IMG/VR virus record: IMGVR_UViG_3300050343_000137
Location: 1-56,718 of that record
From: a virus
Taxonomy: Duplodnaviria; Caudoviricetes
Direction: 5' to 3' (one strand)
DNA length: 56,718 nt
The notes under the pieces are model-generated. The model saw nothing but the letters and a program-made list of their open reading frames with translations. It was not told where the DNA came from and did no database searches. Shown piece after piece: positions 6,969 through 56,173 of the stretch. Both the position numbers and the translations under genes were made by a program. The first letter of the stretch is position 1. The number at the start of each line of letters is the position of its first letter.

Positions 6969-7649
6969 ATGAGCTTCAATACAAGCGGTACTATATCCGA
7001 AGTATTAATAGGTACAGGTGTTCTCTATTACGCAGATAGGACTACAAGTTCTTTAGTATTCCCAGCCGATAACAGCGGCGCATGGGAAAACCCTACAACA
7101 CTATCAGTTCCATTTTCAGAAGTTGGTTATTCTGAAGATGGCTGGACTTTAGAAGTTGATAAAACTTTTGAAGATGTTATGGTTGCCGAAGAAGTAGACC
7201 CTATTAAGACTCTTAAGTCAGCACAAGAAGTAAGACTAACTGGTGAACTATCACAAGCTGGTATTGACAAACTTCAAATCGCAATGGGTGGCGGTGTTAA
7301 AGCAGAAGATACAATTACTGCTACAACAACACAAACCACTGGTAGCGATTTTGATACAGGATATGATTCATATATCCCACCTTTGTCAGATACTTTCACA
7401 GAATATGCGATGGTATTACACACAGATGGTCCAGCTGGTGCAGACAGACAGTTCCACATTCCTAGAGCAGTGAATGTTGGTTCTTTCGCAATGAGTCACC
7501 AAAAGGCTCCAGCAAAAGTTAGTTTGGCAACAGAATTTAAACTTCTTGTTCCAGATTCAACTTTAAATGTTGGTTCTACAAGTGGTGCATACTACTTGTT
7601 CAGAGTCATAGATAACACTAACGATACTGACGAGTTAGATATTAACTAA
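6969..7649 (+). CDS. Major tail tube protein
   Basis: AGGAG RBS; VLIGTGVLY, EVGYSEDGWTL, DVMVAEEVDPI; directly precedes the chaperones and tape measure. Confidence 0.88.
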   Translation: MSFNTSGTISEVLIGTGVLYYADRTTSSLVFPADNSGAWENPTTLSVPFSEVGYSEDGWTLEVDKTFEDVMVAEEVDPIKTLKSAQEVRLTGELSQAGIDKLQIAMGGGVKAEDTITATTTQTTGSDFDTGYDSYIPPLSDTFTEYAMVLHTDGPAGADRQFHIPRAVNVGSFAMSHQKAPAKVSLATEFKLLVPDSTLNVGSTSGAYYLFRVIDNTNDTDELDIN

Positions 7650-14165: not shown

Positions 14166-17158
14166 GCGTAAACGAAAAATTAATGACTCCAGGTACATTT
14201 AATGTACTACTTAATCTTGAAACAACTCCTAACTCAGTAGTCAACTCTATAGAGCCTTGGGGTAATATTGTTCTAACTCCTACAAGAATAAACCCAGAAG
14301 AATTTACAGACACGCAAATAAGAAACATGTCTAGGTATGTAGGTATTGTTACTTCACAAGAAATATCTGAAGAAGGTATAGATGTGTCTGGTAAAGGTGT
14401 TCTTGCTTATCTTGGAGATACAGATTCTCGTGGTATGGTCCTTGCTAGAAATGCAGGTGTCGGTGCAGTAAGAAGTTATGTTGACGACACACTAGATGAT
14501 GTTGTTGATAGAAGTACATCAACTCCTTATGGATTACTTAGAGATGAGGATGCACTACAAAGAGCTGTAAGAAAAGGTACTGTTACAGAGGTAACTTACG
14601 ATGATACAGTTTTACTTTTAAATTTTGAAGGAACTAACGGAGATACAACTACTACTGATGGTTCTGCATTTACTCAAAATCAAGTAATCAGTTTTATAGG
14701 AACTTCTGATATATCTACCGACCAAGCTAAGTTTGGAAGCACAAGTCTTAATTTAACTACAGATGGCGTAGTAACAATTGCTGACCGACCAGAGTTTGAC
14801 TTAACATTTAGAGATTTTACAATCGAATGGTGGGAATACAGAAACTCTGGAGGAACTAATCCTACTGTTGCTGCTAGAAATAATGATACATACTCCCCTT
14901 GGATTGCAGGAAAATTATCTGGTGGTAATAATACATTTTTAGCAACACATGATGGAGATGGTTATAACGAAACAGAAGACTTAAACATAAGTATGGGTTC
15001 TATAGATTTAAATCAATGGAATCATTTTACTGTAACAAGACAAGGACAAACATTTAGAACTTTTAAAAATGGTACAAAAATTACAGAGGTAAACAGACCA
15101 GACTTATATATAAGAGTTAATTCAGACGCAATGCAAATAGGTAAAGCACAAGGTGGCAATTTCTTTAATGGATACATAGATGCCTTTAGAATTGTAAAAG
15201 GTACAGCTCTTTATACAGCAGACTTTACACCAGATACATCTGCTCCTGTAGCAACAACAGCAGCTAAAAAATATACTGGTAAACATTATATGGAATCAGC
15301 TTATAAAGCTTTTAAAGATGTAGCTGTAGCAATTGGAGCAGAGTTCAAAATGAATAATAATGGAACAATTGATGTAGGACCTCCAGAAGCTTTATTTACA
15401 GGACACGAGAATAATACTCCACAAGGAATGATTGTAAGAGATATGTCCGGTGCAGACCCTTCTATACAGGGTTATTCCGGTATTGATTTAAGTACAGAGT
15501 TTAATGCAGAAGATTATGTAAGCCGTGTAGAACTAATAGCTTCTAACTACGGTCTAGAAATAAACTTAGGTCAAGCAGATGCCAAAAGTGTACCTTACAA
15601 AGATTTGTTTGGAAATGAACTAGAAAGAATACAGATATTATCTGAAAATGATGTACCAGATTCTTTGCGAGATATCAGAGCAGAGGCATACTTAAATGAA
15701 TACAACAAAATACAAAAAACTTTAAATGTTGGGTTAGAAGATTATGATGTTTCTGGCGATATAGGTGTTGGAGACATTATATTTGTTTGGGACCCGGATG
15801 TTGGATTTGAAGATACAGCAACAGATGCCACATTAGAAAATAGAGATAGACACGAGATAACTTATCAAGGTCAAATATTACATCCTATAAAAATTAGAGT
15901 TATGGGTCTTTCTTTTCCTATTACAGAATCTATGGGTGTTTTTTATAGAGATGGTAATGGAAGCTATACTGACTTAACAGATTATATTGAATTTGAAGTT
16001 GGAGTAACACAGATAGAAGTAGGTTCTACAACTAAAAACATTAATGAAGATTTAAGAGGTTCTGCTTCTATTATTTCTGTAGGTGGAACTAACGAGTTTA
16101 CTGTACCAGATGCTCCAACAGGATTTTCAGCAGCTACAGGAACATATCAAGACGGCACAGGAAGACCCTTTGCCTTTGCTAAATTAAACTGGGTAGAGCC
16201 AACAAACACAGATGGTTCAAGAATTACTGATGGTAATATGTATCGAGTTAGGTACAGACAGGTAACTGATAGCGATGGTAATAATTTAATTGACCAAAAT
16301 GATAATCAAGTTATTGACTACGAATATCTGACTATAGAATTTGGAACTACTGCTGCCGTTATAAAAGGTTTAGGTTCACAAAATACATACGAGTTTGGAG
16401 TTGCAGCAATAGATAACTCTGGATTTTCTGGAGGCTTCTCAGTTCTTACAGCTGTCGCTATGCCTTCTGATGCTACAATACCACCAGAGCCTTTACCTCC
16501 TACAGGTACTTTTGGAACAGTTGCAGCTAACCCCACTCGTGTGCAGATACAACATAACTTAGGTGCTGCTAAAGATGCAAATGGTAACTCAATTAGTTCT
16601 CCAGTTAACTTTTCTTTACCTGTTGATATAGACCATTTAAATGTTTATAGAGGTACAACTTCTAATTTCACAATTAGTTCAAGCAACTTAGTAGGACAGA
16701 TAGAAGCTAAATCAGCTCATGTTACTTTGGGAATACCTGCTATCGGAGATTTTCCCTCTACAACAGAAGGTGTTGCATACTATAAAGTTACAGCAGTTGA
16801 TGTTGCTGGAAATGAATCAACAGCTTCTACAGCTGGACAAGTAACAGAAGAATTAGTTAATACGGCATTTATTTCAAATGCAGCTATTACAGAAGCAAAG
16901 ATTGAAGACTTAGCAGTTACTAGTGCAAAGATAAATAGTTTGGAAGCTGGAAAAATAACAGCAGGAACTATTAGTGGTAAAGAAATTATTATAGATACAG
17001 ATACTACAGATTCTTCAAACCCTGTATTGGGAACAATAAGAAGTAATAACTATGTATCTGGAACTGCTGGTTGGGTTATAAAGTCAGACGGTACAGTAGA
17101 GTTCGAGGGCGGAGAGTTCCGTGGTACACTTAGAGCTGGAGAGATACATCTAGGATAA
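14162..17158 (+). CDS. Tail tip/hub protein with LamG-like and FN3 domains
   Basis: DFTIEWW, NQWNHFTVTR, FNGYIDAFRIVKG (LamG); VPDAPT, YEFGVAAID, YYKVTAVDVAGNES (FN3); AITEAKI..LAVTSAKI. Confidence 0.85.
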   Translation: MSVNEKLMTPGTFNVLLNLETTPNSVVNSIEPWGNIVLTPTRINPEEFTDTQIRNMSRYVGIVTSQEISEEGIDVSGKGVLAYLGDTDSRGMVLARNAGVGAVRSYVDDTLDDVVDRSTSTPYGLLRDEDALQRAVRKGTVTEVTYDDTVLLLNFEGTNGDTTTTDGSAFTQNQVISFIGTSDISTDQAKFGSTSLNLTTDGVVTIADRPEFDLTFRDFTIEWWEYRNSGGTNPTVAARNNDTYSPWIAGKLSGGNNTFLATHDGDGYNETEDLNISMGSIDLNQWNHFTVTRQGQTFRTFKNGTKITEVNRPDLYIRVNSDAMQIGKAQGGNFFNGYIDAFRIVKGTALYTADFTPDTSAPVATTAAKKYTGKHYMESAYKAFKDVAVAIGAEFKMNNNGTIDVGPPEALFTGHENNTPQGMIVRDMSGADPSIQGYSGIDLSTEFNAEDYVSRVELIASNYGLEINLGQADAKSVPYKDLFGNELERIQILSENDVPDSLRDIRAEAYLNEYNKIQKTLNVGLEDYDVSGDIGVGDIIFVWDPDVGFEDTATDATLENRDRHEITYQGQILHPIKIRVMGLSFPITESMGVFYRDGNGSYTDLTDYIEFEVGVTQIEVGSTTKNINEDLRGSASIISVGGTNEFTVPDAPTGFSAATGTYQDGTGRPFAFAKLNWVEPTNTDGSRITDGNMYRVRYRQVTDSDGNNLIDQNDNQVIDYEYLTIEFGTTAAVIKGLGSQNTYEFGVAAIDNSGFSGGFSVLTAVAMPSDATIPPEPLPPTGTFGTVAANPTRVQIQHNLGAAKDANGNSISSPVNFSLPVDIDHLNVYRGTTSNFTISSSNLVGQIEAKSAHVTLGIPAIGDFPSTTEGVAYYKVTAVDVAGNESTASTAGQVTEELVNTAFISNAAITEAKIEDLAVTSAKINSLEAGKITAGTISGKEIIIDTDTTDSSNPVLGTIRSNNYVSGTAGWVIKSDGTVEFEGGEFRGTLRAGEIHLG

Positions 17159-36848: not shown

Positions 36849-37670
36849 ATGGTGGACAAAAATATATTTCATTTAGTGGGTATGCCACGTGCTGGTAACA
36901 CAGTATTAGGTGGTATTATCAATCAAAATCCAGACTTACAAGTTAGTCCTTTAAGTCCTTTAAGTAGAACTGTAAGTACTTTACATCAATCTTTTGAAGG
37001 AGAAGCTTGGGAAAACTTTGACTGGTCTGCTGAACAAGATACCTTAGCAAGAAAAGTTGCACAAGCTTGGTATTCAGAATCTAAAGCAAATAATATTATA
37101 GACAGAGGTAATTGGTTTCCAGAAGTAGTTAAAAGATTATCTGATAATCCAAAAGTAATTATTTTACAAAGAGATGTGTTTGAAGTATTTGCTAGTTTTA
37201 TAAAATGGGCAAATGAAAATATAGAAAACTTTATATATACAAATGTAATGTCAAGAAAACCAGAAGATGTTATGTCTTATTTGTCTGAATACGGTAATGT
37301 ACAAACATCAGCAAGAATGATTTATACATATCAAAAATATTTAGAAGAAAATGATGATATTGATGTTATGTATTTAGACTATGAAGATTTAACTGGTGAT
37401 ACAGAAAATTCTATAAACAAACTGTACGAATTTTTAGAAGTGGAAACGTTTGAACACAATTATCAAAATATAGGTCAATTTACATTTGAAGGTGAAAAAT
37501 ATAACGATTCAAGAGTAGGTGCAAATTTACACAAACTTAAAGAAGGTAAAATACAAACTTCTTCACACGATATTGAATGGTTATTTCCAAGAGAACTATA
37601 TGCTAGATGGGTAAATATGAATGAACTTATATATACCCCAGAACAATTAGAGGAGAAATATAACAAATGA
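36849..37670 (+). CDS. Sulfotransferase family protein
   Basis: 5'-PSB loop GMPRAGNTVL..I.NQNP, 3'-PB KVIILQRD..EV.AS, YEDL. Confidence 0.88.
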   Translation: MVDKNIFHLVGMPRAGNTVLGGIINQNPDLQVSPLSPLSRTVSTLHQSFEGEAWENFDWSAEQDTLARKVAQAWYSESKANNIIDRGNWFPEVVKRLSDNPKVIILQRDVFEVFASFIKWANENIENFIYTNVMSRKPEDVMSYLSEYGNVQTSARMIYTYQKYLEENDDIDVMYLDYEDLTGDTENSINKLYEFLEVETFEHNYQNIGQFTFEGEKYNDSRVGANLHKLKEGKIQTSSHDIEWLFPRELYARWVNMNELIYTPEQLEEKYNK

Positions 37671-38101
37671 ATATATTAATTTACGGTCTACCTACAAGTG
37701 GTAAAACTACTTTTGCAGAGAAGTTAGTAGAAAAAGTTGGTACTAACATAATAAGACATATTAATGCTGACAAAGTTAGAGAAGCATTTGGTGATTGGGA
37801 GTTTACTCCACAAGCTAGACAAAGACAAGCTTTAAGAATGTCTGCTCTTGCAAAAATAAATGATGTCGATGGATTTAGTTCAATTGTAGATTTTGTATGT
37901 CCATTTAATGCTTATAGAGAGATGCCTTTATGGGATATGACTATATGGGTAAATACTATATGTGAATCCCCATATGAAGATACAAATAAAGCTTTTGAAG
38001 AACCAAAAAAAGAACCTACTTATACAATTTTTAATTGGGAAGAAGTAGATGATATTGTTGAAGAAGTAGCTTACAAGTTACTCAACCAAGAGGAAGAATA
38101 A
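37667..38101 (+). CDS. cysC: Adenylylsulfate (APS) kinase-like protein
   Basis: GLPTSGKTT P-loop, NADKVR...DWEFT..AR.RQ, VDFVCP, FEEP. Confidence 0.82.
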   Translation: MNILIYGLPTSGKTTFAEKLVEKVGTNIIRHINADKVREAFGDWEFTPQARQRQALRMSALAKINDVDGFSSIVDFVCPFNAYREMPLWDMTIWVNTICESPYEDTNKAFEEPKKEPTYTIFNWEEVDDIVEEVAYKLLNQEEE

Positions 38102-38499
38102 TGTTTGACCCTAAAAAACCTACAGTACAAATGCTTGGTAGATGGCAACCATTTCACGATGGTCACTTAGCTCTATTTAAAGAAGCTTTAAAGAAGACAG
38201 GTCAAGTATGTATTATGGTCAGAGACACTGGTGGCACTGACGATAGTAATCCATTTGACTTTGATTTCGTAAAAGAAAAGATTGAAGAAGCACTTATTCC
38301 AGAGTATGAAGGTAAGTTTGTAGTACAGCTAGTACCTAACATTACCAACATAAGTTATGGTCGTGGTGTAGGTTATGCAATAGAAGAGATTGTACTACCA
38401 GATGAAATACAAAAGATATCAGCCACAGGTATTCGTGCTAAAATGAAAGAGATAGGTAAAGATATTCTCGCTTCGCACGAAAATATAATAGAGCCTTAA
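38101..38499 (+). CDS. HIGH-motif nucleotidyltransferase (cytidylyltransferase-like)
   Basis: LGRWQPFHDGH, NPF, YGRGVGY, ISATGIR. Confidence 0.85.
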   Translation: MFDPKKPTVQMLGRWQPFHDGHLALFKEALKKTGQVCIMVRDTGGTDDSNPFDFDFVKEKIEEALIPEYEGKFVVQLVPNITNISYGRGVGYAIEEIVLPDEIQKISATGIRAKMKEIGKDILASHENIIEP

Positions 38500-49668: not shown

Positions 49669-49696
49669 AATATTCTCCTTGTTTTTCTGTACTACC

Positions 49697-49725
49697 ATTA
49701 TATCATATAATTAAAAAAAAAGCAA
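49697..49725 (-). promoter_or_regulatory. Housekeeping-sigma promoter
   Basis: TTGCTT-17 bp-(TGa)TATAAT. Confidence 0.75.
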
Positions 49726-49738
49726 GTATTAAAAAAAC

Positions 49739-49760
49739 TGTCGTACCCTGTTGGTAGGAT
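49739..49760 (+). promoter_or_regulatory. PafBC/RecA-NDp-like promoter
   Basis: TGTCGT-N10-TAGGAT upstream of ORF 49794. Confidence 0.55.
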
Positions 49761-50182: not shown

Positions 50183-51076
50183 TTAATTAATACTTTGCTT
50201 CGGTGGTCTAACAGATTGCTGAGCAAAGTATTCTTTTCTTCTAACTACTGGGAAGCCATCCCATTCACCTTTTTCCCAAACTCTTAAGTATGTAGATGTT
50301 GGGTAATCTATTCCAGCTTTTTTAACTATGGTGTGCATAATATCAAAAGACATTTTACCCAATGCTTGTATGTCTTGATGCGTATGAACCCTTGTCCCCA
50401 TACAAGTTTGTGCAAATCTTCTATGTCCAAGAGAAGCACCATTGTGTATGTCAATCAAATGTGATACTTCAACACCATAACCAGTAGGATATTCTAAAGC
50501 TTCTAATACCTCTCTTCTCCCTGCATACTCACCAGATAAAGGCTGATAAAACTCTTGTATCTTAGGATAGAACATTGCCAACATAGGACGAGCAACAAGT
50601 TCTGTAACTCTACCCATATTACCTCGGTCATAATATGCTTTTACATAATCAACTTCTGGGTTCATAATTAGTGGTCCAACAAGTCCACGAACAAATCTGT
50701 CATCAAAATTTTTAATGTCTCCATCAAGGTAAACTACAATATCTGAGTTAGTTACAAATAATCCTTTCCAAAGATTTTCTCCTTTACCTCCTATAACCTT
50801 TCCTAAGTCTGGTCTAATGTCTTCGGCTAAATAAAAATCTACACCCATAGACGAAACAATTTCTTGTGTGTCATCTGTTGAGCCACTGTCTACTACTACA
50901 AGCTCATCAACCCATTCGGGTATAGCTTTTAAGATTTTAGAAATGTTTTCACCCTCGTTTAAAGTTGGTATAATGACAGCTATAGAGTTATTTTTTTTGT
51001 GACTTAGAATGTATCTTTCGCTAAAGAAACTTTCGTCATATGTGAATGGTTGATACCAAGTGTCAATTCTTTCCAT
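50183..51076 (-). CDS. gpgS: Glucosyl-3-phosphoglycerate synthase-like glycosyltransferase (GT-A fold)
   Basis: VIIPTLNE, VVDSGSTD, GKGENLW, YLDGD, GRVTELVARP, QPLSGEYAGRRE, GYGVE, RVHTHQ. Confidence 0.85.
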   Translation of the reverse strand: MERIDTWYQPFTYDESFFSERYILSHKKNNSIAVIIPTLNEGENISKILKAIPEWVDELVVVDSGSTDDTQEIVSSMGVDFYLAEDIRPDLGKVIGGKGENLWKGLFVTNSDIVVYLDGDIKNFDDRFVRGLVGPLIMNPEVDYVKAYYDRGNMGRVTELVARPMLAMFYPKIQEFYQPLSGEYAGRREVLEALEYPTGYGVEVSHLIDIHNGASLGHRRFAQTCMGTRVHTHQDIQALGKMSFDIMHTIVKKAGIDYPTSTYLRVWEKGEWDGFPVVRRKEYFAQQSVRPPKQSIN

Positions 51077-51106
51077 AAGAAATAATAACACAATTAAATA
51101 GTTCTA

Positions 51107-51245
51107 TAGGTATAGTTAATAGGTTTAGTTATTAGGTATAGTTCCAGTTCATCTGACGTACTACTGTAGTTCATTTAACGAACCCCGGCAGTTCGCCTCT
51201 CGAACCCCTGTAGTTCATCTGACGATATACGGTGTTCATCTCTCA
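51107..51245. repeat. Iteron-like array plus three AT-rich 13-bp-period repeats (putative replication origin)
   Basis: GTTCATCTGACG-like units at 51147, 51169, 51191, 51213, 51234; TAGGTWTAGTT at 51107, 51120, 51133. Confidence 0.75.
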
Positions 51246-51247
51246 TA

Positions 51248-51291
51248 CCACTACATATAGTGGGTAGTAAAAAACATACCACATATGGTAT
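51248..51291. promoter_or_regulatory. Two NrdR-box-like palindromes
   Basis: CCACTACATATAGTGG (51248) and ATACCACATATGGTAT (51276) versus consensus acaCwAtATaTwGtgt. Confidence 0.65.
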
Positions 51292-51486
51292 GCACTAAAA
51301 ATCAAGTATGATATAATAAAGTATAAGGATATATAAGTGTTTCCTTCACTAATCTCCTTTTTCTGTCGGTATATGTACCCTTTAGCTGTCAAAAGCTTTA
51401 GGGTCCCCAAAAAAACTCGCAGCCGGAACGGTATAAACCCCATATCTAACCCCTTATACCAGAGGTCAAAAATTTTTATTTTTCAC

Positions 51487-51632
51487 TTGCTTCATTCCCC
51501 ACTCTGTGGTATACTTATATAGAGGCATAAAAGCCGGTAAAGGAAGCACATTCGTTACTGAAAGCTTACTTACTAGCATAGATGGGGTAAAACATATTTC
51601 CTATAAGGGTTGGGTGTCGCTCGCCCTTTTTT
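51487..51632 (+). ncRNA. Promoter-to-terminator unit without ORF (candidate sRNA, about 110 nt)
   Basis: TTGCTT-17-(TGg)TATACT at 51487-51515; GC-rich hairpin plus T6 at 51605-51632. Confidence 0.5.
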
Positions 51633-51723
51633 AATCTAAACTAAAACTCTAGATTTATTCTTGTCATATGACATTACACTGAAATAGCATTAGGCGGCGC
51701 GGAAACACAAAGATACGTTCTTT

Positions 51724-52143
51724 TTACTTATCCCCAGAATATTTAATCTGAATAGTAACAGGTTCATCATCAGCTCCACCCATCTCAATCTTCTGTGGTT
51801 TAGACCATTTATCGAAGCTTCTCTCTAGCCACCAAGCAGCAGCTTGCCATTGTCCTCTACTAGCTGCAGTCTTAATGCTATTAAGGAAAATACCTTCTGC
51901 TTCTGCTCTTGCTTTCTCCATAGAGTTCAGAAAGTCACTATGTAAAGTCTGTAAACCTGCATCTCTATCATCTCTGCCTTTAGACAGCCAACTGTACAGA
52001 GTACCCTTGCTGATGCCAGCCATCCTAGCTGCGTCTTCAACGAAATAGCCCATTCTAAGCCAGTTTTGTACATTGATGATAAGTTCTGCACTTAGCTTAC
52101 TTGGTCGACCTAATTTATTATCTTTTTTCTTTTCAATACTCAT
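51724..52143 (-). CDS. Terminase small subunit-like HTH protein
   Basis: GRPSKL, AARMAGISKGTLYSW, FL..MEKARAEAE, WQAAAWWLER. Confidence 0.75.
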   Translation of the reverse strand: MSIEKKKDNKLGRPSKLSAELIINVQNWLRMGYFVEDAARMAGISKGTLYSWLSKGRDDRDAGLQTLHSDFLNSMEKARAEAEGIFLNSIKTAASRGQWQAAAWWLERSFDKWSKPQKIEMGGADDEPVTIQIKYSGDK

Positions 52144-52221
52144 TACATATATATTCTAGCATGGTATTTATTGACTCGATTGAAATATTAGATTACGTAA
52201 GGGTATGTGTTATAATACTGT

Positions 52222-52492
52222 ATGGACTACATTCAAAAGATAGAAGAGCTCAAAAGTAAGCTCGAACAACTAGCCATCATGCGTGGTGACGATGCTCTTT
52301 TAGATTATGTACAAGACATAGATATGACACGTATAGACCCTGTAGTCGCTGTGTTGTACATAGGTACACTCACTTTCATACTTTGAAAACCTAGAACTCT
52401 TCAGCGAAGAGGAGAGAATAGAATTAGGTCTATGTAGAGAATGGGTACATCCAAGTGCTTGGAGAACAATCAAAATGGAGTGGGCAGAATAA
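52222..52492 (+). CDS. Hypothetical protein, probably leaderless (one indel near 52375)
   Basis: TGtTATAAT 5 nt before the ATG; MDYIQKIEEL... continues as YFENLELF...MEWAE* after correcting one base. Confidence 0.55.
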
Positions 52493-52656
52493 TTTAAAAA
52501 AATTTTTTCGCCTTTACTATACGCTTACGTTTTCAAACCTACACAGATTAGTACCCCCACCATATACACTATACATTCGAGAAATTAGGATTTATGCGCT
52601 CTGACGTCCGGACCCTATTATATCGCTTGGTTAGCGATTTCACATGAACCCCCAGC

Positions 52657-52674
52657 TTGTGAAATTTTTCACAA
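52657..52674. promoter_or_regulatory. Perfect Rex-operator-like palindrome inside a longer hairpin
   Basis: TTGTGAA-ATTT-TTCACAA. Confidence 0.5.
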
Positions 52675-52697
52675 TCTAGGGGTGCTTGTGTATTCTG

Positions 52698-53036
52698 TTA
52701 TCCTTCCCCTTGAATCACCATTTCTTTATATGTTGCCTTACCGATTCTTTTAGCTTCGGCATATTTACCCCCTAAGCCTTCATTAGAAGGCTCTGTGATA
52801 GGGGTGTAAACGATTGTAGGGTATTTAGAACCTGCATTTTGTAGAGTCTTTGTATACCCTTCACGGTTACCACTGTTTAAGAAATCTTTAACAGTATATT
52901 TTCCAGCATTATTAGGAATGCTTCTAGCACCTAATGGCATCGGTGTTGTACCTTTTTGAGTTGGTATAACGTAACCCTTAAACGCGTTATTGTCGTCGAA
53001 TGTTTTTCCTAATTTACTCATTGTATTTTTATTCAT
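52698..53036 (-). CDS. Hypothetical basic early protein
   Basis: Start MNKN at 53036 after an AAAGGA RBS. Confidence 0.65.
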   Translation of the reverse strand: MNKNTMSKLGKTFDDNNAFKGYVIPTQKGTTPMPLGARSIPNNAGKYTVKDFLNSGNREGYTKTLQNAGSKYPTIVYTPITEPSNEGLGGKYAEAKRIGKATYKEMVIQGEG

Positions 53037-53388
53037 TTTATTTTTTCCTTTTTGAGAATCTAGAGTTTTACTTGAGATTTTCAAGTGGTCTAAATTCTCG
53101 GTTTTTCTTAATGTCATACTATAAATTTACCATGAACCATAGATTTAGACTGTAGTATTTCACAAAAAAATTTATATTTCCATAAACATATATAGAGGTA
53201 AAAAAGTCAATTGCTATAAGGGTTTTTCATGGTCACCCCTATACCCCCCTATATTTTTTTTTAGATTTCCAAAAATAATTCGTCAATTTTACCTCGAAAA
53301 GTGCTCAAGACTTTTTATTTTAGGTGATAGCTTAGAATCTTTTCTAACCTAAATAAATACCGTGTAACTGGTTACACTCTAAACATAT

Positions 53389-53531
53389 TTCAGATTCAGA
53401 ATTTCAGATTCAGAAATTCAGATTCAGATTCAGATTCAGATTCAAAATTTTAATTTCATATATAGGATTTTGATTTCCATATATGTAGGATTTCAATTTC
53501 ATATATATAGGATTCTATTTTCATATATTGG
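53389..53531. repeat. TTCAGA hexamer run followed by four 20-23 bp AT-rich repeats
   Basis: Eight TTCAGA plus TTCAAA (53389-53446); ATTTTAATTTCATATATAGG-like x4 (53447-53531). Confidence 0.85.
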
Positions 53532-53602
53532 TAATATTTACCATTTTAAAATCTAAGTTATTTGACGTAAAAAATCTATATAAATTTACTTAGATTTCAT
53601 AT

Positions 53603-53633
53603 ACACTACATATGGTATAGAACATATGTTCGA
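53603..53633. promoter_or_regulatory. Abutting NrdR-like box and LexA (SOS) box
   Basis: ACACTACATATGGTAT (53603-53618) and TAGAACATATGTTCGA (53618-53633; GAAC-N4-GTTC). Confidence 0.65.
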
Positions 53634-53729
53634 TTTTGCTCCAGTTACTAATTCTGGTCTGGACTTTTTTTTATTATGAGCTCCATTAGTGAGCCCTAAA
53701 TACTCCGGAGGATTTACCATGGAACTGGG

Positions 53730-53891
53730 TTATTTATATAATCCCCAGTTAACCATGTCCCTCACGAATGAGGCGGCACTCTCGAAGTGCTCGTTCCACC
53801 CTGCGGCTTCCTCGCAAGCGTAGAGCGAACAGTATTCACCGCAACCTTCGTCCATTGCGTCTAATACCATTGTGAATTCTTTAATTTTCAT
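53730..53891 (-). CDS. 53-aa acidic early protein
   Basis: AAGGAG RBS, own promoter; MKIKEFTMVLDAMDEGCGEYC... Confidence 0.7.
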   Translation of the reverse strand: MKIKEFTMVLDAMDEGCGEYCSLYACEEAAGWNEHFESAASFVRDMVNWGLYK

Positions 53892-53919
53892 TGTGTCTCC
53901 TTGTTTGTCTTATACTATA

Positions 53920-53948
53920 AGTATATCATATAATCTAAATTAATGCAA
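53920..53948 (-). promoter_or_regulatory. Early promoter (repeated family)
   Basis: TTGCAT-17-(TGa)TATACT. Confidence 0.85.
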
Positions 53949-53965
53949 ATCAAATAGAAGATTTT

Positions 53966-54265
53966 TTAAACTTTTTTTATGTTCTGGAAATCTTCTAAAG
54001 TGTTGGTAAAAGTCCATTCAGATTTTACAATTTTAGCCATAATAGAATCTTCACCTAATTGCCACGCTATAAAATTAATATAATCTTTAATGGCTTCTGC
54101 TTGTTCTGCTGTGTCTGTTACCGTTGTAAACTCAATAGACTCTTCAGCAATACCTAACCATGAACCGTTACATTCTTTAGTCGTCCAACCGCTAACCATC
54201 TTATTAATACCATCGTTAGCATCTTTAATAACTGCTGGTACTGTTCTTAATGTTAATTCGTACAT
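53966..54265 (-). CDS. Small alpha/beta protein, possible SAM lyase / DUF3574-like
   Basis: Start MYEL with GGAAGGA RBS; GWT...NGSWLG..EES...LGEDSIM pattern. Confidence 0.45.
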   Translation of the reverse strand: MYELTLRTVPAVIKDANDGINKMVSGWTTKECNGSWLGIAEESIEFTTVTDTAEQAEAIKDYINFIAWQLGEDSIMAKIVKSEWTFTNTLEDFQNIKKV

Positions 54266-54317
54266 TTTTTGTCCTTCCGTTTTTTTGGTGGGGGTAAATA
54301 CCCCCCCCGTTATTTTG

Positions 54318-54482
54318 TTACGCGTTGGTAACAAATGTAATCATAATGAACGTAAGAGACAGCATGTCCAAAATAAATTGGCTGTAGTCTCTTCTTAGTC
54401 CAAGTCCATAACCCTTGGTATCTGTAAAATACCAGTTGCCACGGTCAGTCTTTTTGTATCCTGTAATTGTTTGTTTTTTCAT
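54318..54482 (-). CDS. 54-aa early protein with hydrophobic C-terminus
   Basis: MKKQTITGYKKTDRGNWYF...; starts 9 nt after a -10 element. Confidence 0.5.
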   Translation of the reverse strand: MKKQTITGYKKTDRGNWYFTDTKGYGLGLRRDYSQFILDMLSLTFIMITFVTNA

Positions 54483-54491
54483 TATGTATAT

Positions 54492-54520
54492 ACTATATCA
54501 CTAAATGTTATTTATGTCAA
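54492..54520 (-). promoter_or_regulatory. Early promoter
   Basis: TTGACA-17-(TGa)TATAGT. Confidence 0.85.
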
Positions 54521-54597
54521 ATCCTAAAAGCCTGTAAACACTGGGGTTATAAAATTATTTTATTTTTTTTTCTAAAATCAGTAAATTTTTTTAAAAC

Positions 54598-54852
54598 TTG
54601 TCACTAGTAACTTATGTAATGAAAAATACTATAAAAATCTTAGTCACCGATATAAAGGAACTAAGTAGCCTACACAAGCAAGCGTTGACTATCTTTCACG
54701 ATAATTATGATAGATACGATTTTATTATGACAGCTCTTTCATTTGTATTAATTGCAAGTGGATTTGTTTTAATAGGTCTTAACTTTCAAATTACAGGAAG
54801 GCTCGTTCTCGGTCTTGCTCTATACCTATTCTTTTGGTGGTCTTGTTACTAG
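54598..54852 (+). CDS. Small two-TM membrane protein (start uncertain)
   Basis: Two hydrophobic segments in the C-terminal half. Confidence 0.5.
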   Translation: MSLVTYVMKNTIKILVTDIKELSSLHKQALTIFHDNYDRYDFIMTALSFVLIASGFVLIGLNFQITGRLVLGLALYLFFWWSCY

Positions 54853-54872
54853 ACCATCAAAGGAAATAGCAA

Positions 54873-54918
54873 ACCCAACATATTGTGGTACTACATATAG
54901 TGGTACTACATATGGGAT
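54873..54918. promoter_or_regulatory. Three tandem NrdR-box-like sites at 15-bp period
   Basis: ACCCAACATATTGTGG, GTACTACATATAGTGG, GTACTACATATGGGAT. Confidence 0.6.
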
Positions 54919-55009
54919 GCCCGTCTAGGTCTGGAGACCCAATGGAATTTTCTTGATTCCCTCCGGAGAAACATTACAAACTCGTATATGCTCCGGAGGA
55001 TTTTCACAA

Positions 55010-55093
55010 GGTTTCAAGATTGTGAAAGTCGGGTACTTCAGAGCCTCTGTGCGAGGGCTATTTCCCAGTCTGTCTTCACAACCTTAACCTTAT
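55010..55093 (-). ncRNA. Candidate early small RNA (rod-like)
   Basis: Follows the promoter at 55100-55128; AAGGUUGUGAAG/UUUCACAAUCUU outer stem, inner AGCCCUC/GAGGCU. Confidence 0.55.
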
Positions 55094-55099
55094 ATTATA

Positions 55100-55128
55100 A
55101 GTATATCATACCTTTACAAATAATGCAA
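55100..55128 (-). promoter_or_regulatory. Early promoter (repeated family)
   Basis: TTGCAT-17-(TGa)TATACT. Confidence 0.85.
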
Positions 55129-55158
55129 ATCATTTATAAAGTTTTTTTTGAAGCTGGG

Positions 55159-56092
55159 TTATATTTCAAACCCAGTTTCAATGTCGTCTAAGATTCTATT
55201 TGCAGTCTTTTGAATTCTGCTTAGAGATTCTTTAACTAATTTCTTAGTGTCTTCTTTGCCCCAGCTTGCGATATAACCGAAGCTGTAAAGCGTCTTCGTC
55301 GCTATGGATGCCTAGCGCTTCAGCCACTATGAAGGCGACGCCTTCGGCTTCTGTCTCATACCTAGCACGGTTTTGGCGATAGTCTTTAATATCTGCGTGC
55401 ATAATCATATGAGCCACTTCGTGAATTAAAGTTTTAACTTTATATCCGAAGTCTGCGTTTTCATCTATAACAATCTGCTTCTCTTCGTGTGAGCAATAAC
55501 CGTCTGCGCCTCGTGCGTTACCCATCACAACTTTGAAGCCATGAACGTCTGCTAATCTAATGAAGTCTGCAAATACATTAAAGTCTGCGTTCGCCACTAC
55601 ATCTTTGACCATTGAAAATGTTGTTGTTAATTCATCACCTTCTGTTTGATTAATTCCAAACACTGGCACCGACATGAACCCCATCATTTTTTTAGCTATT
55701 CTATGTGAAGAGTTAACCCCACAAAAATTTGTTCTAGTGAATTTATTCCATATAGTCTTACGACCAAAAGAAGTACATCCTTTTTGTATGCATACAAAGC
55801 CCATTCTAGGAGCTAATATCCACATAGCCTTTTCACCAGCTTTAATTGTTCTGCCGACTTTTTCCCACTGCTTAGCACCACGTACAGAAGATGGAAGATT
55901 GTCCCAGCCTCTTAATATAGATTCAAGCCAAATCAACTGGGTATTATTCCAGCTGTATGCCTTTTCACCTTTAACAAAGTGTAAGTAGCTTTTCCAGTCG
56001 TTAGATTCAATCAATGCATCAATAGAGTTTTCTAGAGATGCCGATATATTCTCAACAATTTCTTGATTGCTAAGTTTATTTTTAGTAGTCAT
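55159..56092 (-). CDS. ArdC-like anti-restriction protein: ssDNA-binding domain plus zincin (HEXXH) domain; indel near the 3' end
   Basis: YSWNNTQLI, V.G.KQW.K.GR.IK.GEKAMWILAP, LIHEVAH, ETEAEGVAFIV; corrected end YSFGYIASW...RIQKTANRIL. Confidence 0.8.
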
Positions 56093-56122
56093 TTTTAACC
56101 TTTCGTGTTGTCTTATAATATA

Positions 56123-56151
56123 AGTATATCATATATAGCAAATTAATGCAA
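56123..56151 (-). promoter_or_regulatory. Early promoter (repeated family)
   Basis: TTGCAT-17-(TGa)TATACT. Confidence 0.85.
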
Positions 56152-56173
56152 ATCAGATATAGGATTTTTTTAC

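Follow-up and report, generated by a model that had tools for sequence, protein, structure and literature searches.

The DNA analyzed here, referred to below as the window, is a complete IMG/VR record of 56,718 bases (IMGVR_UViG_3300050343_000137), a tailed-phage genome with a completeness rating of about 49%. Between positions 51248 and 54918 it carries six 16-mers that resemble the boxes bound by NrdR, the repressor of ribonucleotide reductase (RNR), together with a LexA-type box fused to one of them and a perfect Rex-type operator. Judged from sequence comparison, the chance is about even that these are operators of the NrdR, LexA and Rex proteins of the host, and that they tie phage promoters to the deoxynucleoside triphosphate (dNTP), SOS and redox state of the infected cell. 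Under this proposal, the six NrdR boxes in their three clusters, the fused LexA box and the single Rex box would all be host-repressor operators, located at or next to promoter-like elements; from these, small structured non-coding RNAs would be transcribed on the + strand, antisense to early genes. NrdR carrying dATP and ATP, intact LexA, and Rex at low NADH/NAD+ would repress these phage promoters, and phage regulation would then track the host dNTP pool, DNA damage and redox state. As a side effect, replicating phage DNA would also soak up the repressors.

NrdR boxes are partly palindromic sequences of 16 bp with an AT-rich center, which occur in pairs and overlap promoter elements (PMC13584703; PMC12051234). 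The six 16-mers of the window are located where an earlier note on this DNA had placed them, as a pair (A1 and A2), a single box (B), and a triplet (C1 to C3; Table 1), and every one of them has C4, A6, A8, T9, T11, and G13, the six key positions (PMC13584703). The flanking a3 and t14 are mostly retained, the AT fraction from C4 to G13 is 0.63-0.88, where the published value is at least 63%, and position 7 is a C in all six. Enrichment over background, which the earlier note had named as a check, was found for two patterns, while the excess for the textbook consensus was weak. The pattern NNNCNANATNTNGNNN occurs six times in 51001-55200, a region picked post hoc, against 1.30 +/- 1.10 expected, with none of 1000 first-order Markov simulations reaching six; over the whole window there are 28 copies against 17.2 +/- 4.4. 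The family's own 14-mer motif ACWACATATRGTRK, allowing at most one mismatch, gives 6 matches against 0.81 expected (0 of 100 shuffles reach 6), of which five lie within 51250-54918, all on the + strand, and one lies elsewhere.

The perfect TTGTGAA-N4-TTCACAA that the earlier note had reported at 52657 agrees with the Rex consensus TTGTGAAnnnnTTCACAA at 14 of 14 bases (PMC4162614). It is the only match without a mismatch in the window, for which the composition-based expectation is 6.5e-4. The LexA-type box AGAACATATGTTCG agrees with the Gram-positive SOS consensus CGAACATATGTTCG at 13 of 14 bases (PMC8270828) and does adjoin box B, as had been claimed; taken alone it is at chance level, with GAAC-N4-GTTC occurring once in the window against 0.56 expected. 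This box overlaps a + strand TGgTATAGA that was identified by eye. The LacI-like palindrome in the same list is present at 53362 but is not conserved: it is not retained in the closest syntenic relative, G005, and was found in only one of 12 other related sequences at up to two mismatches. It probably lies outside the operator system.

Relatives were gathered through the helix-turn-helix (HTH) protein encoded between pair A and the Rex-type site, which yielded 30 related viral loci. Five longer relatives (G001-G005) were taken whole, one of them 71.8 kb long and rated 100% complete, and site conservation was counted over 13 related sequences, window included. This comparison, also suggested in the earlier note, showed that NrdR-, LexA- and Rex-type sites all recur. 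About 450 bp past the HTH gene, the orthologous place is occupied by NrdR-type boxes, usually two or three of them 27-30 bp apart, and such boxes are clustered in the early arm of every longer relative; measured from start to start, the spacings in relatives are 27-30, 43 and 15 bp. In G005, the 30-bp NrdR/LexA composite is nearly unchanged between diverged flanks, and two boxes are retained at the place of boxes C (54888-54918), one of them inverted. A perfect Rex box is found in 4 of the 13 sequences (the window, G001, G002 and L006), with a one-mismatch copy in L016 and an expectation of 7e-5 to 8e-4 per sequence, and the boxes in these four relatives are at non-orthologous places. Perfect copies of CGAACATATGTTCG occur in three (G002, G005 and L006; expectation at most 0.025 each), and GAAC-N4-GTTC totals 17 over the 13 sequences against about 3.4 expected. 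In G001, G002 and L016 a gap of 2 bp separates a Rex from a LexA box, NrdR, Rex and LexA boxes stand in one row in G001, and the combination of NrdR with LexA is found in the window and G005. Among the relatives, the three site types recombine like modules. Beside the LexA-type box of G001, at about 7250-7340, a stretch resembles a tRNA T-arm on the other strand.

The sequence conservation of the arms, the variable centers and the modular rearrangement favor protein-binding sites over hairpins or chance. It is quite improbable that the palindromes act as nucleic-acid structures, that is, as terminators, processing sites or single-strand hairpins. Some features do fit such a role: on the - strand A2 is rated as a terminator-like hairpin with T6 after it, the Rex box is part of a longer hairpin between convergent genes, the variable positions 5 and 12 of the window boxes can pair on the + strand (T-A, C-G, T-G), and the region has an excess of terminator-like sites (14 against 3.7). 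The arms, however, are kept by sequence and not by compensatory change while the centers vary, one G005 box is inverted, the stems are only 4-7 bp long, and most boxes have no following T-run. Chance resemblance in AT-rich DNA, with no function at all, is harder still to credit. The motifs were chosen for their resemblance to known ones, and within the window alone neither the LexA-type box nor the scan with the NrdR consensus is significant, but the local enrichment of NrdR boxes, the low expectation for the Rex box and the conservation despite diverged flanks all speak against it. Recent common descent as the sole source of the conservation is contradicted by the non-orthologous positions of the sites.

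NrdR, the LexA DNA-binding domain and the Rex N-terminal domain were found in none of five records (the window, G001, G002, G003 and G005), one of which is rated 100% complete. ATP-cone and RNR were found in none of the five relatives G001-G005, and the RNR large subunit was not found in the window, in agreement with the earlier statement that no nrd gene is present there. Small Cys-rich open reading frames (ORFs) were checked for an NrdR-like zinc ribbon; none is similar by eye and none matches the NrdR model. The claim that the sites match NrdR, LexA and Rex operators has held up, in that the published determinants are present, the sites are conserved, and the repressors were not found in the phage records. 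Binding by host proteins would be the simplest account of three conserved and reshuffled palindromes, because three host consensuses are equaled, the cognate operators of the candidate host described below are matched, and the phage records lack these repressors.

An alternative, which seems unlikely, is that the palindromes are operators of phage-encoded regulators, either the HTH protein or unrecognized small proteins, and merely look like host sites, or that they are recognition sites for packaging or replication beside the iterons. The HTH protein is the only recognizable DNA-binding protein near the boxes, and in every relative its gene is found about 450 bp away from pair A. Pair A also belongs to an iteron cassette that has an inverted duplicate in G001, with one copy at a contig end, an arrangement that recalls origin or packaging regions; in addition, NrdR sites do not typically have boxes that are 27-30 bp apart and all of one sense, and most early proteins have no known family. 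On such an account, however, three palindromes would each have to mimic a separate host consensus, including the Rex match at 14 of 14 bases and the perfect SOS box of relatives, although only one HTH protein is recognizable. Moreover, the relatives were found through the HTH gene, so its co-occurrence with the boxes is biased, and the positions of the Rex and LexA boxes are not linked to it.

The cassette mentioned above is 186 bp long and consists of the TAGTT block, the iterons and the first box pair (the region of 51094-51247 in the window). In G001 it is present twice, at 16085-16269 and 71621-71806, in inverted orientation and at 99.5% identity, and one copy runs into the contig end. Relative to the late genes, the orientation of the early arm in G001 is also the reverse of that in the window. 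Possible causes are an early segment that inverts, long inverted repeats at the termini, or an artifact of assembly. At the iteron place, relatives have repeats of equal period but other sequence.

The likely host is a streamlined, low-GC (guanine plus cytosine) marine actinobacterium of the class Acidimicrobiia that would fit Candidatus Actinomarinales. The class was reached through a distant relative of the endolysin in metagenome-assembled genome (MAG) records labeled Acidimicrobiales or Acidimicrobiia; distant endolysin relatives occur in Actinomycetota MAGs, and no relative was found when the endolysin was used as a host probe in species genomes. NrdR is present in 347 of 401 sampled genomes of the class, a tally that includes four genomes flagged as unpublished, which enter no other result. 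One order within the class has genomes of 0.6-1.1 Mb (65 sampled) and 27-38% GC in the loci read. These values are consistent with Candidatus Actinomarinales, for which the description gives about 1.1 Mb and 32.5% GC, with phages of 33.6-36.5% GC (PMC7771536); the GC of the window ranges from 28 to 44% across 1-kb windows. A DNA query with 20 kb of the window gave strong matches in one genome of this order, G275 (E down to 3.6e-45). The matches fall on two contigs of 34% GC, C30 and C36, which have several genes in common with the window at 41-78% amino-acid identity; both contigs share with it a DUF5675 protein plus two other genes. C30, of 58,316 bases, ends in a direct repeat of 14,457 bp, which indicates a circular or concatemeric phage of 43.9 kb. 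Through G275, phages with shared modules thus appear to be tied to the candidate order. No Rex or LexA boxes were found on C30 and C36, which suggests that the array characterizes this phage family and not every phage of that host.

The weak exonuclease matches are mostly to actinophages. WhiB, sought as an actinophage marker, was found in none of the five records. An archaeal host was considered since the only cultured relatives of the HTH protein are archaeal viruses, and was dropped in view of the Shine-Dalgarno sites, promoters of the sigma-70 type, and the endolysin, which combines an amidase with a peptidoglycan-binding domain.

NrdR, LexA and Rex are all encoded in each of five small genomes of the candidate order, and their operators closely resemble the phage sites. 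In three candidate-host genomes (loci L197-L199), nrdR starts within the box ATACCATATATGGTAT, directly after TATAAT; a start codon at this place suggests that nrdR is leaderless and autoregulated. A fourth nrdR region has two boxes 27 bp apart, the proximal one being ATACTACATATGGTAT. Box A2, ATACCACATATGGTAT, is identical to ATACCATATATGGTAT at 15 of 16 bases, and ATACCACATATGGTAT and ACACTACATATGGTAT are each one base removed from the host nrdR boxes ATACCATATATGGTAT and ATACTACATATGGTAT; the 14-mer ACTACATATGGTAT of box B is the box at the nrdR start of genome G151. Upstream of the nrd reductase gene lie two boxes 31 bp apart (15-bp spacer) in the four genomes with a match. The lexA gene is preceded by AGAACATATGTGCT in four of the five genomes and by CGAACATTTGTTCT in the fifth, both of the same type as the phage box. 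Each of the five also has a perfect Rex box at a distance of about 1.45 kb from rex, and that of G151 is identical to the phage site, center included. Perfect Rex boxes number 1-5 per genome in all 65 genomes, while a reversed control pattern is absent from 64 of the 65. In L197-L199, lexA lies a few hundred bases from the nrdR start, on the other strand.

These host counts bear on the proposal of the earlier note that the array is a decoy, in which the sites chiefly titrate host NrdR, LexA and Rex and thereby switch on host genes for dNTP synthesis, repair and respiration. As the chief role, this is rather doubtful. The phage family has no RNR genes of its own, and the candidate hosts, with genomes of about 1 Mb, have 1-5 perfect Rex boxes and very few NrdR or LexA operators in the loci examined; at 6 + 1 + 1 sites per phage genome, a few tens of copies would exceed these numbers. 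Several clusters, such as the triplet at 54873-54918, contain more boxes than one promoter needs, and the sites shift among relatives yet remain perfect. However, the spacing is not the high-affinity geometry of NrdR, box B is single, and the window holds only one Rex and one LexA box. The sites also adjoin promoter-like elements and conserved structured stretches, which suggests local control; in addition, Rex and LexA boxes are missing from two other phage contigs linked to that host order, conservation was not seen for the LacI-like palindrome, and the effect is only calculated from site numbers. The evidence weighs against titration as the main purpose, and titration is plausible as a corollary: with only a handful of operators in the candidate host and no RNR on the phage, replicating phage DNA would also absorb repressors. 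A broader version would make the array a metabolic auxiliary built of DNA instead of genes. In an ultra-small marine actinobacterium, with few operators per regulon and probably few repressor molecules per cell, multiplying phage genomes would absorb NrdR, LexA and Rex and force on host genes for dNTP synthesis, repair and respiration, while the same sites would time small RNAs of the phage; this version is similarly improbable. Sensing of the host state by the phage through these sites, which the earlier note had offered as the alternative, fits the anatomy better than titration.

The anatomy in question is that of the promoter-like elements, which were assigned by eye. The earlier note had stated that most of the sites do not overlap phage promoters; this reading instead puts the boxes beside + strand promoter-like elements, opposite leftward genes. 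The putative promoter overlapping A2 has a weak -35 and is not in the list of the consensus scan. Relatives have TATAAT, TATACT or TAGAAT at the same place in the alignment; in some, the -10 directly adjoins an NrdR-type box, an arrangement close to that of the host nrdR promoter. Downstream lies a structured stretch (51324-51485) with a core that reads as the anti-Shine-Dalgarno-like CCUCC(U)UUUCUGUCGGU, resembling the 3' end of 16S rRNA. In an alignment of ten sequences, its + strand has a consensus fold of -9.55 kcal/mol with 9 pairs, 5 of which show compensatory changes, and with G-U pairs, as compared with -3.19 kcal/mol and 4 pairs on the - strand; the single-sequence z-score is only -1.89, and no Rfam family matches the stretch. 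At the place of the second small unit, L012-L014 have TTGACA-17-TATAAT or TATAGT. The stretch at 54919-55092 is better conserved in comparison with G005 than the neighboring aligned sequence, including one hairpin that keeps its stem while its loop changes, and its fold z-scores are -4.04 (+) and -3.05 (-).

Some further observations concern the core of the first stretch. Its opposite strand reads as a strong ribosome-binding site with a start codon next to it in 10 of 10 relatives, and the short frames that follow are not conserved. A loose DNA pattern for the core hit at least 119 loci, among which no true relative was left after filtering, and a tighter pattern gave only 9 contigs, all of them already known. 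An identity of ten bases, CCTTTCTGTC, between the core and codons 3-6 of nrdR in two candidate-host genomes is absent from two others and was set aside as coincidence.

Contigs from RNA libraries (four runs) cover 51000-51070, inside the glycosyltransferase ORF, parts of the HTH gene, 53459-53674, 53629-53983 (which includes a 53-amino-acid gene), 53903-54148 and 54301-54451. The data are strandless, of depth 2-4, and open to DNA carry-over, and they neither support nor reject the proposed transcripts. One contig begins or ends at 53629, beside the composite operator, and the contig spanning 53459-53674 comes from an oligo-dT library.

Several points weigh against control by host repressors. 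The earlier note picked motifs for their resemblance to known ones, which introduces a look-elsewhere effect, and the repressor binding, the promoters, the transcripts and the host are all predictions. The textbook NrdR consensus, ACACWATATATWGTGT, shows a weak excess at up to three mismatches: there are 5 matches where 2.45 are expected, a count attained by 10 of 100 shuffles. The geometry is also off for NrdR: pairs are 27-30 bp apart (spacers of 11-14 bp), B stands without a partner, and the members of the triplet follow one another at 15 bp. The six window boxes also share one sense (center CATA), a uniformity that a symmetric dimer site would not require. In the candidate host the nrd operon has its boxes 31 bp apart, as compared with 27-30 bp in the phage pairs, although one host nrdR region has 27 bp. 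The Rex box sits within a longer imperfect hairpin between convergent genes, where a role as terminator is possible, and promoter-like matches near it are weak. A consensus promoter scan gives 31 promoter-like sites against 29.8 expected, and thus no excess. The RNA-library contigs do not cover 51324-51632 or 54919-55092. Finally, the host link comes from one assembly (G275, a single cell or bin), in which the phage contigs have no Rex or LexA boxes.

The departures from NrdR geometry can be specified further. Strong NrdR binding needs two boxes with spacers of 14-17 or 24-27 bp (PMC12051234). Against a two-box spacing of 15-16 bp, with 14-17 or 24-27 bp tolerated, the phage boxes as a whole fall outside: pair A has a spacer of 12 bp, the spacer of 14 bp between C1 and C3 is the sole case within the tolerated range, and box B has only a half-box 30 bp upstream. 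NrdR boxes are also expected in the promoter region of an RNR operon or of nrdR, and neither gene was found on the phage.

Compared with the NrdR operators of nrd operons (PMC13584703; PMC12051234), the phage sites share the C4/A6/A8/T9/T11/G13 16-mer, the arrangement in pairs, the overlap with promoter or promoter-like elements and the AT-rich center. They differ in that no RNR gene was found in the window or the five relatives, in spacers of 11-14 instead of 15-16 bp, and in the 15-bp triplet, the single box and the C7 of all six. Host-LexA operators on phages are already established, while Rex boxes have been described at redox genes and NrdR boxes at nrd operons. The Bacillus phage SPbeta has several host-LexA boxes; some overlap promoters of the phage, and some are bound in vitro by host LexA (PMC8270828). 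As in SPbeta and other LexA-controlled phages, the sites in the window include a putative phage-borne LexA operator of the Gram-positive CGAACATATGTTCG type. In contrast to those phages, LexA boxes are here one of three site types and are fused to NrdR- or Rex-type boxes, they lie in non-coding DNA beside small units, no tyrosine integrase was found in the five records, and binding is predicted. The Rex-type site has the exact TTGTGAAnnnnTTCACAA of Gram-positive Rex operators (ROP), and such sites number 1-5 per genome in the 65 candidate-host genomes; it differs in being phage-borne, in lying between convergent genes and, in relatives, in standing beside a LexA-type box.

Extra operator copies can lower the free level of a scarce DNA-binding protein, as is the case for DnaA and datA and for operators on multicopy plasmids. 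The principle of titration by the phage would be the same, but the array would address three repressors and the effect is only calculated. A limited search of the open-access literature turned up neither a description of Rex boxes in phages nor one of phage operator arrays acting as decoys. To our knowledge, conserved modular operators for three global repressors of the host have not been described on a phage. If the sites bind host proteins, an abundant uncultured pair of marine phage and host would become readable from sequence, the boxes would predict the type of host and the host signals to which the phage listens, and the system would offer a simple test of whether a streamlined cell can be reprogrammed by the copy number of sites alone. 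Since heterologous boxes are bound by NrdRs (PMC13584703), the NrdR part of the proposal is testable in vitro without a culture of the host.

Table 1. Coordinates of the operator-like sites and neighboring features in the window.
Feature	Position	Strand	Remarks
NrdR-type box A1, CCACTACATATAGTGG	51248-51263		Six key NrdR positions; kept at the orthologous place in relatives
NrdR-type box A2, ATACCACATATGGTAT	51276-51291		28 bp after A1 (start to start)
NrdR-type box B, ACACTACATATGGTAT	53603-53618		Single box
NrdR-type boxes C1-C3	54873-54888, 54888-54903, 54903-54918		15-bp period
LexA/SOS-type box, AGAACATATGTTCG	53619-53632 (core 53620-53631)		Abuts box B
Composite operator, box B plus LexA-type box	53603-53632		Extended -10-like TGgTATAGA at 53613-53621
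Rex-type operator, TTGTGAAATTTTTCACAA	52657-52674		Between convergent genes
LacI-like palindrome, GTGTAACTGGTTACAC	53362-53377		
Family-2 glycosyltransferase	50183-51091	leftward	
TAGTT-repeat block	51094-51144		Beside start of leftward glycosyltransferase gene; 76-90% identity in distant relatives with unalignable flanks
About five 22-bp direct repeats (iterons, CAGTTCATCTGACG type; family D2)	51145-51247		Just upstream of pair A
Promoter-like element, putative non-coding RNA 1	51289-51317	+	Extended -10 TGaTATAAT at 51309-51317; A2 overlaps the -35 place
Structured non-coding stretch 1	51324-51485 (ends approximate)	+	Variable 5' hairpin, invariant core, conserved hairpin
Second small unit	51487-51632	+	Putative promoter TTGCTT-17-TGgTATACT (51487-51515); intrinsic terminator, stem 51612-51626 plus T-run
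HTH protein, small-terminase-like family phrog_4102	51724-52143	-	PHROG E = 9.8e-36; weak Pfam HTH matches
CAGATT-type short repeats, then four 22-bp repeats	53389-53440, 53447-53531		Upstream of box B; families D3-D5, D15
Structured non-coding stretch, 174 nt	54919-55092		Between boxes C and leftward promoter; paired CTCCGGAG elements
63-bp leftward early-type promoter module (A-tract, TTGCAT, 17 bp, TGaTATACT; family D1)	49682-49744, 53905-53967, 55085-55147 (55093-55147 beyond the structured stretch), 56108-56170	-	
ArdC-like protein with M78 peptidase domain	55244-56092		

The stretch reads as that portion of a marine siphovirus's leftward early arm which is regulatory and mostly non-coding. 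Positions 1-47,000 are occupied by structural and lysis genes in rightward orientation, among which a capsid fragment, a tape measure protein and tail proteins are recognizable together with an Mre11-like exonuclease and the endolysin, and beyond about 47,000 the gene direction is mostly leftward. Near the boxes few proteins are recognizable. Three of the four copies of the leftward promoter module are in the consensus scan; three copies precede genes, and the third copy precedes only the stretch 54919-55092. The repeats at 53389-53531 are poorly conserved in G005. A megablast of the region against cultured phages gave zero matches. A near-identical stretch is present in many marine and viral metagenome runs, 14 of which contain at least 87% of the sampled words; endolysin relatives bear Tara Oceans labels. 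A tRNA scan and an Rfam search at gathering thresholds gave no matches in the window. An injection-stop region like that of T5 was also considered and was supported by no test.

An inverted-repeat pair of 23 nt, of the AATCTAAACTAAAACTCTAGATT type, is located at 51633-51655 and 53057-53079, and also occurs in distant relatives just past the HTH gene. At 52222-52493, rightward frames of 54 and then about 35 amino acids are separated by a stop and a one-base change of frame near 52384, which may represent two genes, a frameshift or an error. Three neighboring genes at 36849-38499 have Pfam matches to a sulfotransferase, an APS-kinase-like P-loop protein and a cytidylyltransferase-like protein, and may form a surface- or DNA-modification module.

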